Part shown: positions 11,991-61,614 of the stretch, piece by piece | How the letters are laid out: each line of letters begins with the position of its first letter | Numbering within the stretch: the first letter of the stretch is position 1 | Source of the DNA: Candidatus Aenigmatarchaeota archaeon | GTDB taxonomy: Archaea; Aenigmatarchaeota; Aenigmatarchaeia; CG10238-14; SCSR01 | NCBI GenBank assembly: GCA_038998335.1 | Contig: JAVZHQ010000001.1 | Location: 64,001-128,000, forward strand | Length of the DNA: 64,000 bases | Reading direction: 5' to 3' | Translations under genes and position numbers: made by a program | Notes under the pieces: model-generated | What the model was told of the DNA's origin: nothing | The model's database searches: none | Seen by the model: the letters and a program-made list of their open reading frames with translations, nothing else

Positions 11991-12083
11991 TGGGGACGCT
12001 GGGATTTGAACCCAGGTTTTCTCGTGCAAAGCACTCTGAGCCTCCCAAGGGCCCGATCCTAGACCAAGCTAGACGACGTCCCC
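11991..12083 (-). tRNA. tRNA-Pro(UGG) with 22-nt variable region, probable 18-nt non-canonical intron
   Basis: GGGGACG/CGTCCCC acceptor, GGGCC-CTTGGGA-GGCTC anticodon arm, CTGGG-TTCAAAT-CCCAG T arm; no encoded CCA. Confidence 0.93.
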
Positions 12084-55764: not shown

Positions 55765-56604
55765 ATGAAATTTAATCAAAGCTTAGCGACTATTCACGCA
55801 TACTTATGCGCAGATGGTTATGTAATAACCAATCCACCTACTCAAAAGCATAAATATTATTATATTGGTTTAAGAAATACGAACGAAATAATTTTACAAG
55901 ATTTTCAAAAGAATTTTGAAAGGGCATTTGGAATAAAACCAATAATTACAAAAGAAAAAGATAGATGCAAAATTCAAAATAAAAATTTATTTTTAAAACT
56001 CACAAAAAACTTTTCATTTTACTCAGATAAGTGGACCATGCCAAAGCTTTCATTAAAAGGATTAAGGTGTTGGTTGAGAGCTTTTTTCGACTGTGAAGCA
56101 TGGGTTAATGTTCAGAAAGGTAAAAGTAGAGTAATAGGATTAGAATCTGTTAACAAAAATGGCCTGGAACAAATTAGAAATTCTTTGCTTAAATTTGGGA
56201 TTAAGGTATCTAATGTAAAAAAAAGGAAGAATAGGAATATTTGGTATATTTACATTTGTGGTAAGGAAAATCTTCTAAAATTCAAAGAAAATATTGGATT
56301 TTTACACCCAAATAAAAACAAAAAACTCTTAGAAGCTATTAATTCATATATAAATTACGAATGGTTGATACCAAGTGAAAGAGAAGAATTTATCAAATTT
56401 GTGAATGATAAAGGGAAGTTAAGAAATGATACAAAAGAAGTTAGATTCTTTTCAATCATCAAAGATAATTTAATAAGATTAAAAGAAGAGTTAATAAAGT
56501 ATGGTATTGATGCAAGGATGTATGGTCCCTGGAAAAATAATAGGGGAAGAATTTATTATTGTTTATCTTTTAAGCAAAAAGAATTAATTAAATTAAGGAG
56601 GTGA
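55765..56604 (+). CDS. Free-standing LAGLIDADG (DOD) endonuclease-like protein
   Basis: IHAYLCADG and WLRAFFDCEA, IGFLHPNK; no Hint motifs; stop overlaps rtcB start (GTGA). Confidence 0.85.
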   Translation: MKFNQSLATIHAYLCADGYVITNPPTQKHKYYYIGLRNTNEIILQDFQKNFERAFGIKPIITKEKDRCKIQNKNLFLKLTKNFSFYSDKWTMPKLSLKGLRCWLRAFFDCEAWVNVQKGKSRVIGLESVNKNGLEQIRNSLLKFGIKVSNVKKRKNRNIWYIYICGKENLLKFKENIGFLHPNKNKKLLEAINSYINYEWLIPSEREEFIKFVNDKGKLRNDTKEVRFFSIIKDNLIRLKEELIKYGIDARMYGPWKNNRGRIYYCLSFKQKELIKLRR

Positions 56605-58076
56605 GAAAGATAAGGCTTAAAGAAAGGTTAAGAAAAATTGGCCCTTGTCTATGGGAATTACCAAGGGAAACAAAGCCGGGAATGAAAGTACCAGCATGGC
56701 TTTTCTTGTCAGAAAAGCTTTTAAGTCAAGTAGAAGAGGGAGCGATAGAGCAGGCAGCCAATGTAGCTTTCTTACCAGGAATTTACAAGCATAGTATAGC
56801 ACTCCCTGATATGCATTTCGGCTATAGCTTATAAAGCGGCTAAGGATTTCCTATCGGGGGGGTTGCAGCTTTAGATTATAAAGAAGGCGGCTTAAGTCCA
56901 GGAGGTATAGGCTTTGATATCAATTGTGGCGTAAGACTTTTGCGTACAAACCTAACATTAGAGCAAGTAAAACCAAAACTTAAGGAATTGCTAGAATCAA
57001 TTTTCCATAACGTTCCTTCTGGTGTTGGCGAAGTTGGAAAAATTAAGCTAAGCTTTTCTGAGCTAGATGAAGTTTTAGTCAATGGAGCAAGATGGGCCGT
57101 TGAAAAAGGTTACGGAACCGAAAAGGATTTGGAGCACTTGGAAGAGCAGGGTTGCATGAAAGGTGCAAACCCAGAAAAAGTTTCTAACGAAGCAAAAAAG
57201 AGAGGAGCTCCTCAGCTTGGTACTCTAGGAGCAGGAAATCATTTTCTTGAAATTCAAATTGTGAATAAAATATTTTTACCAGAAGTTGCGAAAGTTTTTG
57301 GAATAGAAAAGGAAAATCAGATTTGCGTGATGATCCATACCGGAAGTCGTGGATTTGGTCATCAAGTTTGTACTGATTATTTAAGAATTTTGGAATCTAG
57401 GTTTAGAGATGAGCTAAGAAAATTACCTGACCGCGAGCTAGTTTATGCTCCTGCTGGAACTCAAGAATGTGAAGATTATTTTTCTGCAATGGTTTGTGCT
57501 GCAAACTATGCTTGGACTAATAGGCAAATGATTGCTCATTGGGTAAGGGAAAGTTTTGTAAAAGTTTTAGGAATGAAATTGGAAGATATAGGCTTGGAAA
57601 CAGTTTATGATGTGGCTCATAACATAGGGAAAATAGAAGAGCATGAAATAGACGGAAAAAAAGTTAAGGTTTATGTTCATAGAAAAGGTGCTACAAGAGC
57701 ATTTCCTCCTGGGCATCCAGAAATCCCAAGAGATCATCAAAAAGTAGGGCAATGCGTACTTATTCCAGCTAGCATGGCTACCCCTAGCTTCGTTTTAGTT
57801 GGAGCAGAAACCGCAAAAGAAACATTTTACTCTACTGCCCATGGCTCCGGGCGTGTAGAGTCCAGAACAAAAGCACTTAAGCAGATTAGAGGCGAAGAAG
57901 TCTTAAGACAATTGCAACAAAAAGGTATACTAGCTAAGGCCGCCAGCATGAAAGTTCTCGCTGAAGAGAGGCCAGAAGCTTATAAGCTATCGACAGAAGT
58001 TGTAAAAGCAACAGAAGAAGCAGGCATAAGTAAGCGTGTAGTAGAATTGTGGCCTTTAGCTGTGATGAAGGGTTAA
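56601..58076 (+). CDS. rtcB: tRNA-splicing ligase RtcB, join(56601..56825,56844..58076), 485 aa
   Basis: Spliced frame reads PDMHFGY|GFPIGGVAA...DINCGVR...GNHFLE...HTGSRG...VAHN...HRKGATR...AHGSGR; SD GGAGG before GTG. Confidence 0.93.
56826..56843 (+). other. 18-nt BHB intron in rtcB mRNA
   Basis: AGCTTATAAAGCGGCTAA; GGCT/GGCT 4-bp central helix, ATA and AAG bulges, GCTT/AAGC inner stem. Confidence 0.85.
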
Positions 58077-58245: not shown

Positions 58246-58524
58246 ATGCTCTCTCAAATACCTTTTGAACTTGAGAAAATAAAGAAAGAAGACTTGGAAA
58301 AAGAAATAGCAAGAGTTGGGATGATAGCAGAGCTAGATGCTATAAATTTATACGAGCAACTAGCAGCTGTTTGTGAAGATCAAAAAATGAAGAAAGTCTT
58401 GCTGGATATAGCAAAAGAAGAGAAAACTCATCTCGGCGAGTTTCAAGCCTTGCTTTTAGAAAAAGATGAAGAGCAACAAGAAGAATTGAAAAAAGGAAAA
58501 GAGGAAGTTGAAGAGTTAAGCTAA
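58246..58524 (+). CDS. Ferritin-like protein (encapsulin-cargo/rubrerythrin-like)
   Basis: AELDAINLYEQ, IAKEEKTHLGEF. Confidence 0.85.
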   Translation: MLSQIPFELEKIKKEDLEKEIARVGMIAELDAINLYEQLAAVCEDQKMKKVLLDIAKEEKTHLGEFQALLLEKDEEQQEELKKGKEEVEELS

Positions 58525-58937
58525 ATGTCAAGAATAACTTTTGCTTTCCAAACTTTATTTTTTTTAATTTTTAGCTGGTGATAGGTACAAGCTTTAACGT
58601 GCGTTCTAGTTTCATGCTTATTCTTATCTATGGTTTCGCCTTTGCAAATAGCTTCTAGCTTAAATTTTTTCTCATTAACTTTTACCGAAAATTCAGAAAA
58701 AGCTAAGTTTTCCGAATCAACAAAAACTAGCAAATAATTTAGCCAGTTAAACATTAAAGATTCTAAGTCTGAACCTTCGACCTCAACTTTTCTTTCAATT
58801 TTTGTTTCTATTTGCTTAGTGTTAACCATTACTTCAAACATTGCTAAGGCTGCATTTTCAAACAACTCGTTCAAATCTTTACCATAAGCTTCAAAGGCTA
58901 TGTCTGCTGTTGTTATGTCCAAAAACTTAAACTTCAT
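58521..58937 (-). CDS. Archease (RtcB activator)
   Basis: TADIAFEAYG...LFENAALAM...VKACTYHQL...ILDI. Confidence 0.93.
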   Translation of the reverse strand: MKFKFLDITTADIAFEAYGKDLNELFENAALAMFEVMVNTKQIETKIERKVEVEGSDLESLMFNWLNYLLVFVDSENLAFSEFSVKVNEKKFKLEAICKGETIDKNKHETRTHVKACTYHQLKIKKNKVWKAKVILDI

Positions 58938-58992: not shown

Positions 58993-60129
58993 TTGGTAAT
59001 CATGGAAAGAATACCGAAAGCTTTGTTAGAAGTAGAAAATTATATGAAAGTTAACCTTATAGAAACTTTTGGAATTCCTAAGGAAAACGAGCAAATGGGT
59101 TTAGCTATAGAGGAATACTTAAGCAGGGGAGGAAAATACCTTAGGCCAGGTTTGGTTTGGTCGACAGTTAAAGCATATGAAGTAAGAAAACCAGAAGATT
59201 CCATCTGGGCAGCGATTTCATTAAGCTTCGATCATAACTGGTTTTTGATTCACGATGATATAGAAGACAATTCAAGGCTAAGAAGAGGAAAGCCTTGTTT
59301 ACACATACTTTATGGAATAGATAATGCAATAAATTATGGCGATTACTTAAGAACTTTAGCAGAAATGGCTTTGGAAAAAGGAAAGAAAAATTGGGGGCTT
59401 AAAACTTATTCAAAACTTATTTCTGCAAGACAGGAAATGCTTAAAACAACTTGTGAAGGACAAGACTTAGAGTTTGTCTTAAGGAAAAAACCTTTGAGAG
59501 AAACTACAGAAGAAAAAGTTTTTAAAATCCTAGAGAAAAAGTCAGCTTTCTACACAGTATTTACACCTTACCGCTACGGAGCAATAATTTCAGGAGTAAA
59601 TGATAAGGAAATAGAAGAGCTTAAGCCTGCTTTAATGAAAATAGGAATTGCTTTTCAGATTCAGGATGATGTTCTTGATTTAACAGTAGAGAAAGAACAA
59701 GAAAAAGGTGAAGCTACTTTAAAAGCTCAAAAGTTTGGAAAGGATTGGGCAGGGGATTTGGAGGAAATGAAAAGAACTTTGCTGATAGCAAAAGTTTTAG
59801 AAAAAGCTGATAGCGAAGACAAAAAATACTTGCTAAGAATGTTGGATAATGAGGGAAGGATGAAAAGGCTTGTAGCTATGAGAGATTCTTTAAAAGATAA
59901 AGGTCTGGAAAATTCCTCTCAATATAGAAAAGTTCAAGGAAGAATTGATGAAATTAAGCTAAAAGTCATAGAAATCATGAATAAGTATAGTGTGATAGAT
60001 GAGGCAAAAGAAAAAGCAAAAGAGCTTTATGAGCAAGGAATAGTAAAAGTAGAGGAAGCTTTACCTGCTACTGAAGGAAAAAAAGATGTTTTAGATTTGT
60101 TAAAGTTTGCAGTGTTTAGGCACTTCTAG
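58993..60129 (+). CDS. Polyprenyl/geranylgeranyl diphosphate synthase
   Basis: GGKYLRP, LIHDDIEDNSRLRRG, GQDLE, AFQIQDD, DLEEMKRT. Confidence 0.9.
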   Translation: MVIMERIPKALLEVENYMKVNLIETFGIPKENEQMGLAIEEYLSRGGKYLRPGLVWSTVKAYEVRKPEDSIWAAISLSFDHNWFLIHDDIEDNSRLRRGKPCLHILYGIDNAINYGDYLRTLAEMALEKGKKNWGLKTYSKLISARQEMLKTTCEGQDLEFVLRKKPLRETTEEKVFKILEKKSAFYTVFTPYRYGAIISGVNDKEIEELKPALMKIGIAFQIQDDVLDLTVEKEQEKGEATLKAQKFGKDWAGDLEEMKRTLLIAKVLEKADSEDKKYLLRMLDNEGRMKRLVAMRDSLKDKGLENSSQYRKVQGRIDEIKLKVIEIMNKYSVIDEAKEKAKELYEQGIVKVEEALPATEGKKDVLDLLKFAVFRHF

Positions 60130-60142
60130 AAAAGCTTATAAG
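60129..60142 (+). promoter_or_regulatory. Putative BRE-TATA for the BHB ncRNA
   Basis: GAAAAG-CTTATAAG about 25 nt upstream of the structure start at 60165/6. Confidence 0.55.
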
Positions 60143-60164: not shown

Positions 60165-60270
60165 TGTAGTTAAGGAGGAAGTTTAGAATTCAGTAGCTAA
60201 CAGCTACGCTTTCCTTGGCTTATAAAAAGCTGAGGAAAGTCAAAAATTCTAAACCTCGAACTTAACTACG
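60165..60270 (+). ncRNA. Unassigned structured RNA with strict hBHBh' motif and 3-way junction
   Basis: 9-bp outer helix, GAGG/CCTC central helix, AAG and GAA bulges, 9-bp inner helix, two hairpins; G-U pairs favour + strand. Confidence 0.75.
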
Positions 60271-60287: not shown

Positions 60288-60296
60288 TCTTTTTTT
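60288..60296 (+). terminator. T-tract putative terminator of the ncRNA
   Basis: TCTTTTTTT downstream of the structure. Confidence 0.4.
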
Positions 60297-60319: not shown

Positions 60320-60730
60320 ATGAGAAAAGCTCAGGCTGCCTTGGAGTATTTGGTTCTCGTTTCAGTTGCACTTTTGATATTTGGTGGAATTCTTTACTAT
60401 TTTCAAATTTCAAAAAACAGCTTTTCTAATGATGTAAGAGTTTCGCAACTCAGAAATGCAGTCGATTGGATGATAAGCTCAGCTAACATGGTTTGTATGC
60501 AAGGCGAGCCTGCAAGCGTTATTTCTCAAGTTTACATTCCTTCAGGAGTAAAAGACGCTTATTTTGATGATAAAAAAATAGTTTATAACTTGACTGTTGA
60601 TTCTAGTGTGACTCATGTTTATGGGGAAGCTTTGTGCAAACTAAACGGAACTTTACCAAGAGGAGAAGGAAACTATAGAGTTCTTGTTAAAATGCAGGGT
60701 GATTATGTTAACATTACCTATAGGTTTTAA
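60320..60730 (+). CDS. Pilin-like protein (class III signal)
   Basis: MRKA|QAALEYLVLV. Confidence 0.85.
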   Translation: MRKAQAALEYLVLVSVALLIFGGILYYFQISKNSFSNDVRVSQLRNAVDWMISSANMVCMQGEPASVISQVYIPSGVKDAYFDDKKIVYNLTVDSSVTHVYGEALCKLNGTLPRGEGNYRVLVKMQGDYVNITYRF

Positions 60731-61112
60731 GGCTCAGGTTGTGGGAGAATTCATTTATTTATTCGGAGCTTTTTGCTTTTTTCTAGTTGCTTTCATAGCA
60801 GCTTATACTTGGAGAAATACTCAAATTCAAGAGCAAAGCATGATTTTTGAGGTTCAGAGAATAGGTGATGAGGCTGCAAATCAAATAAATTTAGCTCATT
60901 TAAGTGGAGATGGTTTTTCAAAAGAATATTACTTGCCTGAAAAAATAGGGACGTTTATTTATAACATAACCATTTACGGAAACGTTTTAATCATAAACAC
61001 AACAAAAACTTCCTATTCCGTTGCATTAATCACAAGCAATATTAATGGAAACTTTACTTTTGGAAAAAATTTAATAAAAAATATTGATGGGATGGTGAAC
61101 ATAAGTGCTTAA
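60705..61112 (+). CDS. Pilin-like protein
   Basis: KA|QVVGEFI, from ATG 60705. Confidence 0.75.
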   Translation: MLTLPIGFKAQVVGEFIYLFGAFCFFLVAFIAAYTWRNTQIQEQSMIFEVQRIGDEAANQINLAHLSGDGFSKEYYLPEKIGTFIYNITIYGNVLIINTTKTSYSVALITSNINGNFTFGKNLIKNIDGMVNISA

Positions 61113-61614
61113 GAAAAAAGCTCAGGTTTTCACTTTTGATGTTTTTATGAGCTTAATATTTTTTGTTAGCGTTTTTGTTATTTGGCTTATCATAACCAAT
61201 CAGTTAGTTGAACAGGCAAGTTATGCTTATGAAATTAACATGCTCGATAAAAAATTGCAAAGGGCTTCTGACCTGCTTATAAGAAGCAAAGGAGTACCAG
61301 AAGATTGGGATTCAAATAACGTGAAAGCTTTTGGTTTAGCAGGAGATACAGAATATATAGTGAGCGAAGAGAAAATTTCAAAATTTTTGAGCGCAGGTAT
61401 AGATAAAATTAAAAGTAGTCTTGGTTTTGGTGGCTACAATTTATACATAAGATTTGCTAACATTACAGGAGATGATTTTGACCCAGCAAACCCTTATGAG
61501 ATAGGAAGCTTTCCGAACAACCCAAAAATTGTAGTTTCAATAAAGAGGTATTTCCTGATAGATTTTAACGGAAATAGAGATTTGGCTATGATGCAAATGA
61601 TTGTGTGGCGATAA
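61105..61614 (+). CDS. Pilin-like protein
   Basis: KKKA|QVFTFDVF, GVPEDW. Confidence 0.8.
   Translation: MLKKKAQVFTFDVFMSLIFFVSVFVIWLIITNQLVEQASYAYEINMLDKKLQRASDLLIRSKGVPEDWDSNNVKAFGLAGDTEYIVSEEKISKFLSAGIDKIKSSLGFGGYNLYIRFANITGDDFDPANPYEIGSFPNNPKIVVSIKRYFLIDFNGNRDLAMMQMIVWR

Follow-up and report, generated by a model that had tools for sequence, protein, structure and literature searches.

A lineage-restricted noncoding RNA gene of Aenigmatarchaeota carries a conserved bulge-helix-bulge motif and may give rise to a circular RNA

INTRODUCTION

Why should an archaeal genome hold a complete bulge-helix-bulge (BHB) motif in the gap between two protein genes, within no tRNA, rRNA, or open reading frame (ORF)? 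The question is raised by a locus of the Candidatus Aenigmatarchaeota archaeon genome G000, in a 64,000-nucleotide stretch of DNA that was analyzed as a whole and is hereafter called the window. In the canonical BHB, as in tRNA introns, the order of parts is outer helix, central helix, bulge, and inner helix, and the cut falls after the second base of each bulge. The RNA rings known to arise from such motifs are by-products or intermediates (tRNA introns and pre-rRNAs), plus one rearranged signal recognition particle (SRP) RNA and one mRNA leader.

For the archaeal pre-16S and pre-23S rRNAs, EndA cleavage at a BHB with excision and circularization of the insert is described as an established outcome (PMC7714728, PMC12558985). 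The ring derived from an archaeal tRNA-Trp intron carries a C/D box sRNA (PMC7714728), metazoan tRNA introns are released as stable rings termed tricRNAs (PMC4536317), and the permuted SRP RNA of Thermoproteus is made functional by BHB cleavage and circularization (PMC4731332). A BHB intron in the 5' untranslated region (UTR) of Haloferax volcanii HVO_1309 yields a circular RNA that was confirmed in vitro, and the EndA substrates named by the same systematic Haloferax study are tRNA, rRNA, and that single mRNA leader (PMC7714728). Among titles and abstracts in the literature, we found no report of a free-standing BHB noncoding RNA or of an archaeal noncoding RNA linked to rtcB or archease, and PMC12918454 does not mention DPANN or Aenigmatarchaeota.

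RESULTS

An intergenic element with canonical BHB geometry

The initial annotation of this locus described a free-standing BHB element preceded by a promoter and followed by a T tract. When the sequence was reread and the fold was computed, every helix, bulge, and coordinate claimed for it proved exact, and the promoter-like and terminator-like signals were likewise present. The parts of the gene, in window coordinates, are as follows.

60128-60141, plus strand: promoter-like signals, a purine-rich BRE-like run (60128-60134) and TTATAA (60136-60141)
60166-60174, plus strand: 5' strand of the outer helix, with compensatory changes at all 9 pairs (30 sequences)
60166-60180, plus strand: predicted 5' exon, the outer helix 5' strand together with 60175-60180
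60175-60178, plus strand: 5' strand of the central 4-bp helix, GAGG, which with G60174 reads GGAGG
60179-60181, plus strand: 5' bulge, AAG, with the canonical cut predicted at 60180/60181
60182-60190, plus strand: 5' strand of the inner helix, 8 of whose 9 pairs covary
60193-60207, plus strand: hairpin 1, 6 bp with a 3-nt loop, 5 of whose 6 pairs covary
60208-60240, plus strand: hairpin 2, 14 bp including G-U pairs, with a 5-nt loop, refolding in every homologue
60245-60253, plus strand: 3' strand of the inner helix, pairing with 60182-60190
60254-60257, plus strand: 3' strand of the central helix, CCTC (CCTC in 28 of 30 sequences)
60258-60260, plus strand: 3' bulge, GAA, with the canonical cut predicted at 60259/60260
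60261-60269, plus strand: 3' strand of the outer helix, which together with 60260 forms the predicted 3' exon
60181-60259, plus strand: 79-nt RNA predicted from the geometry to be excised and circularized
60290-60296, plus strand: run of seven T's, terminator-like as read from the sequence

The strands succeed one another in the order outer helix, central helix, bulge, and inner helix. The element has the 3-4-3 geometry of a canonical BHB, as had been claimed, with each bulge lying 3' of its own strand of the central helix, and its topology is that of the pre-16S processing stem and of the clear tRNA introns of G000. The 9-bp inner helix closes a three-way junction formed with the 6-bp and 14-bp hairpins, and the TTATAA stands 30 nt ahead of the first paired base. 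The plus strand folds at −47.2 kcal/mol (z, −9.33), a value equaled by 0 of 200 shuffles. Because the reverse strand folds nearly as stably, at −44.5 kcal/mol, fold energy cannot pick the strand. The canonical bulge topology exists on the plus strand only, the reverse complement lacking it, and covariance models score the sense strand at 104 to 120 bits and the antisense strand at about 30 bits; the RNA gene lies on the plus strand. RNAfold itself places the core in a slightly different register, a 3x3 internal loop plus a mismatch in place of the two bulges.

A scan for strict 3-4-3 BHB geometry across both strands of the whole 1.0-Mb genome (span, 20 to 260) ranked the element first of 4,305 candidates, with a score of 22.5. 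The next-best scores were 22.0 and 21.5, and because they come so close, BHB geometry by itself is not decisive. The 22.0 runner-up (contig C1, 263089-263275, minus strand) spans the 3' end of an ORF, and the 21.5 runner-up (C1, 543542-543606, minus strand) spans an ORF start.

The element is a noncoding RNA gene. It contains no ORF of at least 20 aa, ARAGORN and Rfam find no tRNA at it, and it overlaps no rRNA or Rfam match, all of which bears out the free-standing position first proposed for it. When the window was scanned against Rfam 15, a check suggested by the initial annotation, two tRNAs alone reached the gathering threshold, neither of them at the element, whose best local matches in a permissive search scored 15 to 20 bits against thresholds of 50 to 100. 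The RNA therefore matches no known family.

Individual identities were also considered and rejected. A tRNA is contradicted by the fold, whose three-way junction bears hairpins of 6 and 14 bp, as well as by ARAGORN and Rfam. C/D box sRNAs carry a C box (RUGAUGA), a D box (CUGA), and a K-turn; UGAUGA occurs on neither strand of 60166-60269. For a Y RNA, neither an Rfam Y RNA match nor a match to PF05731 (Ro60/TROVE) was found, the latter in a genome assembly that is 90% complete. G000 has its 5S, SRP, and RNase P RNAs at other loci. A MITE or other repeat is at odds with the one full-length copy in G000, the presence of one copy per genome in nearly all relatives, and the 0 matches in viral contigs. 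The two identities that the initial annotation had set against its own proposal, a known family and a multicopy MITE, were thus both looked at and neither was found.

A new RNA family restricted to Aenigmatarchaeota within the searched range

BLAST followed by two covariance models recovered homologues in 27 of 69 further genomes from the taxonomic family of G000, up from 25 of 69 at an earlier stage of the search. No homologue was found in 48 genomes from six other families of the order, and one clear homologue, at 52 bits, was found in another family of the class. Homologue records with a named organism are all Candidatus Aenigmatarchaeota. An exact-pattern scan through genomes of 185,579 species returned 16 matches, whose record titles read Candidatus Aenigmatarchaeota archaeon in nine cases and "uncultured archaeon" in seven. 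In metagenomes the same pattern occurs at 17 loci, one of which resembles a chance match; the 10 sequencing runs in which the locus occurs are all DNA, from hot-springs metagenomes of 4 studies. A 23-nt pattern for the predicted back-junction matched 0 stretches in metagenome contigs, which are DNA, so that this count has no bearing on a ring. Within the range searched, and as judged from sequence, the RNA is a new family confined to one Aenigmatarchaeota family and one genome of a sister family.

Even within the home family, searches of 70 genomes, G000 among them, left 42 in which the RNA was not found, and one genus represented by few-contig assemblies has it in 0 of 11 genomes. The RNA is dispensable, not essential, since so many family genomes were searched without finding it. 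One relative, G016, holds three copies (L043, L050, and L110).

Covariation supports the fold, and the core is conserved in sequence

Conservation of the element is accompanied by covariation, which places it beyond chance. When 10 sequences were aligned with MAFFT, blind to structure, 97.5% of the cells paired, versus 28 to 48% with slid partners. In an alignment of 30 distinct sequences that was fitted to the model and so leans towards the structure, 95.7% of 786 cells pair (slid controls, 27 to 49%). The covariation search in related genomes that the initial annotation had proposed thus found compensatory changes at 22 of 28 pairs across the 30 sequences, a result matched by 0 of 500 shuffles.

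The 3-nt/4-bp/3-nt geometry is held in 28 of the 30 homologues, around a predicted excised RNA of 56 to 87 nt. The 5' bulge is 3 nt long in 28 sequences, with G as its third base in 28 of 28, and 2 nt long in 2 sequences; the 3' bulge has 3 nt in all 30, with a purine in first place in every one and an A in third place in 29. These third bases, G and A, are those that follow the two predicted cuts, and both are nearly fixed. The central helix always comprises 4 bp, a single sequence having one mismatch in it. Its 5' strand reads GAGG in 24, GGGG in 5, and GGAG in 1 of the 30; none of its 4 pairs covaries, the changes being G-U wobble only. The G that precedes this helix is fixed in 29 of 30, and the five inner pairs beside the bulge, UUUAG/CUAAA, are almost invariant. 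The periphery is looser: hairpin 1 is absent from 5 or 6 of the 30 sequences, hairpin 2 is too variable in sequence to align and often bears a UUCG loop, and the sequences of the hairpin loops are not conserved.

The same alignment bears on the register. Column 14 undergoes A-to-G changes, yet it pairs with an invariant U in 30 of 30 sequences, and pair 17-123 of the alternative RNAfold register is broken in 4 of 30. For these reasons the BHB register is modestly preferred over that of RNAfold. In 27 of the 30 homologues, a purine run and then a TATA-like hexamer precede the first paired base, the hexamer by 22 to 40 nt (26 to 33 nt in most), and 19 of the 30 have a run of at least 5 T's in the 45 nt downstream (26 have one of at least 4 T's). 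Because the DNA is AT-rich, we take these signals as supportive only.

Three weak paralogues (31 to 36 bits) have a shifted register and a 4x1 loop. A divergent group of paralogues lacks hairpin 1, does not adjoin archease, and has either a 2-nt 5' bulge or a 4x1 loop. The loci behind these observations on extra and divergent copies are the three in G016 and one each in G023 (L054), G069 (L055), and G048 (L047).

The conserved core gives weight to a reading in which the RNA is never cut. It may be a linear, structured sRNA whose bulged helix is a protein docking site or a tertiary motif that resembles a BHB. G[A/G]GG...CCUC and UUUAG/CUAAA are nearly invariant while the surrounding helices covary, and such invariance, superfluous for EndA, is what a sequence-specific binding site typically shows. 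Since the central helix never covaries and EndA is not known to require a particular sequence, another reader of that sequence is implied, and the uncleaved, protein-binding sRNA becomes the main rival and a serious one, even if on the whole we rate it less likely than a ring. Recognition would then center on the bulged helix and the junction, because the hairpin loops are not conserved, and the deviation of some paralogues from 3-nt bulges is of a piece with this. Sequence invariance is explained better by an uncleaved sRNA than by a ring. The exact canonical geometry and the neighborhood are explained less well: the 3-4-3 arrangement in canonical topology would have to be kept in 28 of 30 sequences by a motif that bears no K-turn signature (tandem G-A follows neither bulge), that matches nothing in Rfam, and for which no partner candidate was found, G000 having no Ro60/TROVE gene and the encapsulated ferritin (EncFtn)-like neighbor described below failing to co-occur with the RNA.

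The RNA gene is linked to archease

Genes for the RNA ligase RtcB and its cofactor archease both lie in the window, 1 to 3.5 kb from the RNA.

56601-58076, plus strand: rtcB (E, 1e-139), with an 18-nt BHB-like mini-intron at 56826-56843
58521-58937, minus strand: archease, the RtcB cofactor (PF01951; E, 2.5e-46), divergent from the RNA gene

The order in the window is rtcB, an EncFtn-like ORF, archease (minus strand), a polyprenyl synthase gene, and then the RNA, which lies 36 nt past the stop codon of the polyprenyl synthase gene, with a pilin-like gene 50 nt further on. At 18 of the 29 homologous loci, archease is found upstream of the RNA in divergent orientation. It is directly adjacent, at 60 to 500 nt, in 11 of these 18 and about 1.2 kb off in the other 7, with polyprenyl synthase in between in six of them, the seventh being the G011 locus. 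Three of the 29 loci end at a contig edge less than 250 nt away, and at one the upstream sequence amounts to only about 840 nt. At seven loci, 1.5 kb of upstream sequence contains no archease, apart from one weak same-strand match that was not counted; near two of these seven, at a distance of 2 to 4.5 kb, the EncFtn-like gene and rtcB persist. We found no neighbor common to the archease-unlinked copies. Because the kin are not independent, archease adjacency may in part be inherited synteny.

Two further searches concerned archease loci as such. Among 22 of them in another family of the order, searched for the RNA with filters off, the best E value was 0.4. Five RNA-negative genomes of the home family showed no BHB of similar quality beside archease.

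Several other ORFs share this region. The EncFtn/rubrerythrin-like ORF (92 aa; window 58246-58524, plus strand) sits between rtcB and archease and is present in 20 of the 70 genomes of the family, often at this same place. It shows no strict co-occurrence with the RNA among family genomes and may assist the ligase in a redox or metal-related role. An ORF for a free-standing LAGLIDADG endonuclease (279 aa; window 55765-56604, plus strand) ends at the start of rtcB. In G059, G061, G082, and G083, the rtcB matches lie in open frames of 960 to 1,318 aa, a length that suggests inteins. Downstream of the RNA, there are three small ORFs (window 60320-61614, plus strand), the first of which encodes a signal peptide of class III (archaeal pilin-like); this run follows the RNA across the genus and lies further off in two other genera.

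The position of the gene speaks to two further explanations. The element might be a cis-acting part of a neighboring protein gene (a 5' UTR, terminator, or attenuator), and its tight spacing between the polyprenyl synthase stop and the pilin-like gene is what one would expect of such a part. We find this barely credible: both of those neighbors change among genera while the RNA stays, a T run separates the RNA from the downstream gene, and the one constant feature upstream, archease, is on the other strand. Alternatively, the element might be a functionless relic, a domesticated BHB intron or mobile element that happened to land between genes, in keeping with the sporadic introns and inteins of the neighborhood and the three copies in G016. 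That origin, too, is very improbable. G000 has a single copy, viral contigs have none, position and orientation relative to archease are kept across many genera, the promoter-like signal stands at a fixed distance, and the compensatory changes at 22 of 28 pairs point to selection on the fold.

BHB processing in G000 extends to the rtcB mRNA

All three enzymes needed for the proposed processing, EndA, RtcB, and archease, are encoded by G000, EndA by a single gene (PF01974, 95.1 bits, 193-aa frame at contig C1, 649574-649852). In its liberal intron mode, ARAGORN flagged 19 of 46 tRNA genes as intron bearing. Within the window, tRNA-Pro(TGG) (11991-12083, minus strand) is 93 nt long and presumably intron bearing; tRNA-Pro(GGG) is 86 nt away. 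The pre-16S stem (G000 contig C1, 407621 with 409227) forms a canonical BHB in which both bulges read AAA and the inner helix has 12 bp. Over the 2.6 kb downstream of the 16S gene there is a tRNA only and no 23S rRNA; the rRNA genes hence appear unlinked.

That the nearby rtcB bears an intron, as first annotated, is also supported. The 18-nt mini-intron, 3.3 kb from the element, contains two in-frame TAA codons and adopts a relaxed 3-4-3 BHB fold. Its excision joins ...FGY to GFPIGGV, restoring the GY|GF motif, and in the rtcB of the closest relative, G001, exactly those 18 nt are absent. The rtcB mRNA would need EndA and RtcB to become translatable. The BHB mini-intron of rtcB thus shows that BHB processing in this lineage reaches beyond tRNA and rRNA. 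Of the 60 family genomes with an rtcB match, 8 have stops within the gene, and the distribution of these stops does not follow that of the RNA.

Taken with the archease linkage, the rtcB intron invites the view, raised in the initial annotation, that the RNA is a decoy or sensor of the splicing pathway, sharing a promoter region with archease and titrating or reporting EndA/RtcB capacity in the course of its own binding, cleavage, and ligation, with products that have no target beyond that. The conserved divergent adjacency of archease, at 60 to 500 nt in 11 loci, the single TATA-like region that lies between RNA and archease in some loci, and the predicted dependence of the G000 rtcB mRNA itself on BHB splicing all fit this view, though indirectly. 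Set against it, the mini-intron and the RNA do not travel together: G001 has the RNA without the intron, and G065, G066, and G068 have rtcB stops without the RNA. Copies unlinked to archease exist, and a decoy would leave the sequence invariance of the central helix unexplained. We consider it improbable.

DISCUSSION

The RNA gene described here is real, previously undescribed, and lineage restricted, and it carries a conserved canonical BHB. As to what becomes of its transcript, we put at roughly one in two the probability that EndA excises 60181-60259 and that RtcB with archease circularizes it. This reading is favored because the BHB is built around an insert of about 80 bases and the gene lies beside archease. 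The gene would be transcribed independently, to a primary transcript of about 105 to 130 nt that would be essentially a canonical helix-bulge-helix-bulge-helix cassette. EndA would cut behind the second base of each bulge, at 60180/81 and 60259/60, whereupon RtcB and archease would close the 79-nt insert into a ring and join the two short flanks into a hairpin of about 25 nt. The predicted ring is a rod, with the three-way junction at one end and, at the other, a nearly invariant 5-bp stem capped by a nearly invariant 7-nt loop, CCUC-R-N-G. The ligated flanks would display a loop, GAGGAA-A, that with the preceding G reads GGAGG. The sequence conservation of the central helix and of the five adjacent inner pairs counts against a ring, as do the 2-nt 5' bulge in 2 of 30 homologues, the shifted register of the three weak paralogues, the preference of RNAfold for a 3x3 loop, the 42 family genomes in which the RNA was not found, and the copies unlinked to archease.

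Set beside the systems in which EndA acts, the RNA is familiar in form and new in context. Like the archaeal pre-16S and pre-23S stems, it has long outer and inner helices flanking a 3-4-3 BHB, with a topology identical to that of the G000 pre-16S stem. Unlike those stems, it encloses an insert of 56 to 87 nt that is not rRNA, with promoter-like signals of its own, and the ring would be the end product. With ring-forming tRNA introns it would share the enzymes, the BHB, and an excised part that is predicted to be a stable structured RNA; it differs in having no tRNA host and no C/D boxes, and its "exons," of about 15 and 10 nt, would form just a hairpin. The permuted SRP RNA of Thermoproteus is likewise neither tRNA nor rRNA and comes from a BHB-flanked transcript, the functional ring being that of Thermoproteus; it is, however, a rearranged universal RNA, whereas the RNA described here belongs to no previously known family, and G000 has a normal SRP RNA elsewhere. 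The HVO_1309 intron is a BHB outside tRNA and rRNA for which EndA cleavage, predicted here, has been demonstrated; that intron sits in an mRNA leader, in contrast to a stand-alone noncoding gene conserved as a family.

A different comparison is with the bacterial Y RNAs YrlA and YrlB, which are encoded in rsr-rtcB operons. These, too, are structured noncoding RNAs beside RNA-ligase genes, with a long terminal stem, a conserved bulged helix, and a multihelix module. In contrast to them, the RNA has neither a tRNA-like module nor an Rfam Y RNA match, and G000 lacks Ro60/TROVE.

If the circular reading is true, archaea have evolved dedicated circular noncoding RNAs by way of the tRNA-splicing machinery, and the gene would be a natural counterpart to engineered circular-RNA expression cassettes. 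Together, the RNA and the rtcB mini-intron point to an unusually broad use of BHB motifs in these reduced genomes. EndAs of the DPANN alpha4 type are described as having an extra loop that is associated with more disrupted tRNA genes (PMC5829648). The RNA also offers a defined, easily synthesized 105-nt substrate for EndA and for RtcB/archease from a DPANN lineage not in culture.

A possible antisense target was pursued and set aside. RNA positions 60235-60255 match 21 nt exactly at G000 C1:410363-410383 (locus L002, 1501-1521), antisense to a 268-aa ORF, and in three congeners 15- to 22-nt RNA matches lie antisense in a MetRS-like gene. These matches are probably due to chance, because the genes are not orthologous across genera, though they offer a starting point in the search for targets.

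Should the RNA be processed as proposed, its working surface would be either the CCUC-R-N-G loop of the ring or the complementary GGAGG of the flanks. That these loops mimic anti-Shine-Dalgarno and Shine-Dalgarno sequences is a guess, conceivable because the 16S rRNA of G000 ends ...CACCTCCT and 61 of 709 crude ORFs have GAGG in the 20 nt ahead of them, versus 7 for CCTC. One could go further and imagine a promoter-driven "circular RNA gene" with ring delivery as its sole purpose, whose exposed loops couple RNA-ligation capacity to translation initiation. The CCUC-R-N-G of the ring would correspond to the anti-Shine-Dalgarno end of 16S rRNA and the GGAGGAA-A of the flanks to a Shine-Dalgarno site, and ligation capacity would be set by archease, through the shared promoter region, and by the need of rtcB itself for splicing. 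We give such a coupling long odds.
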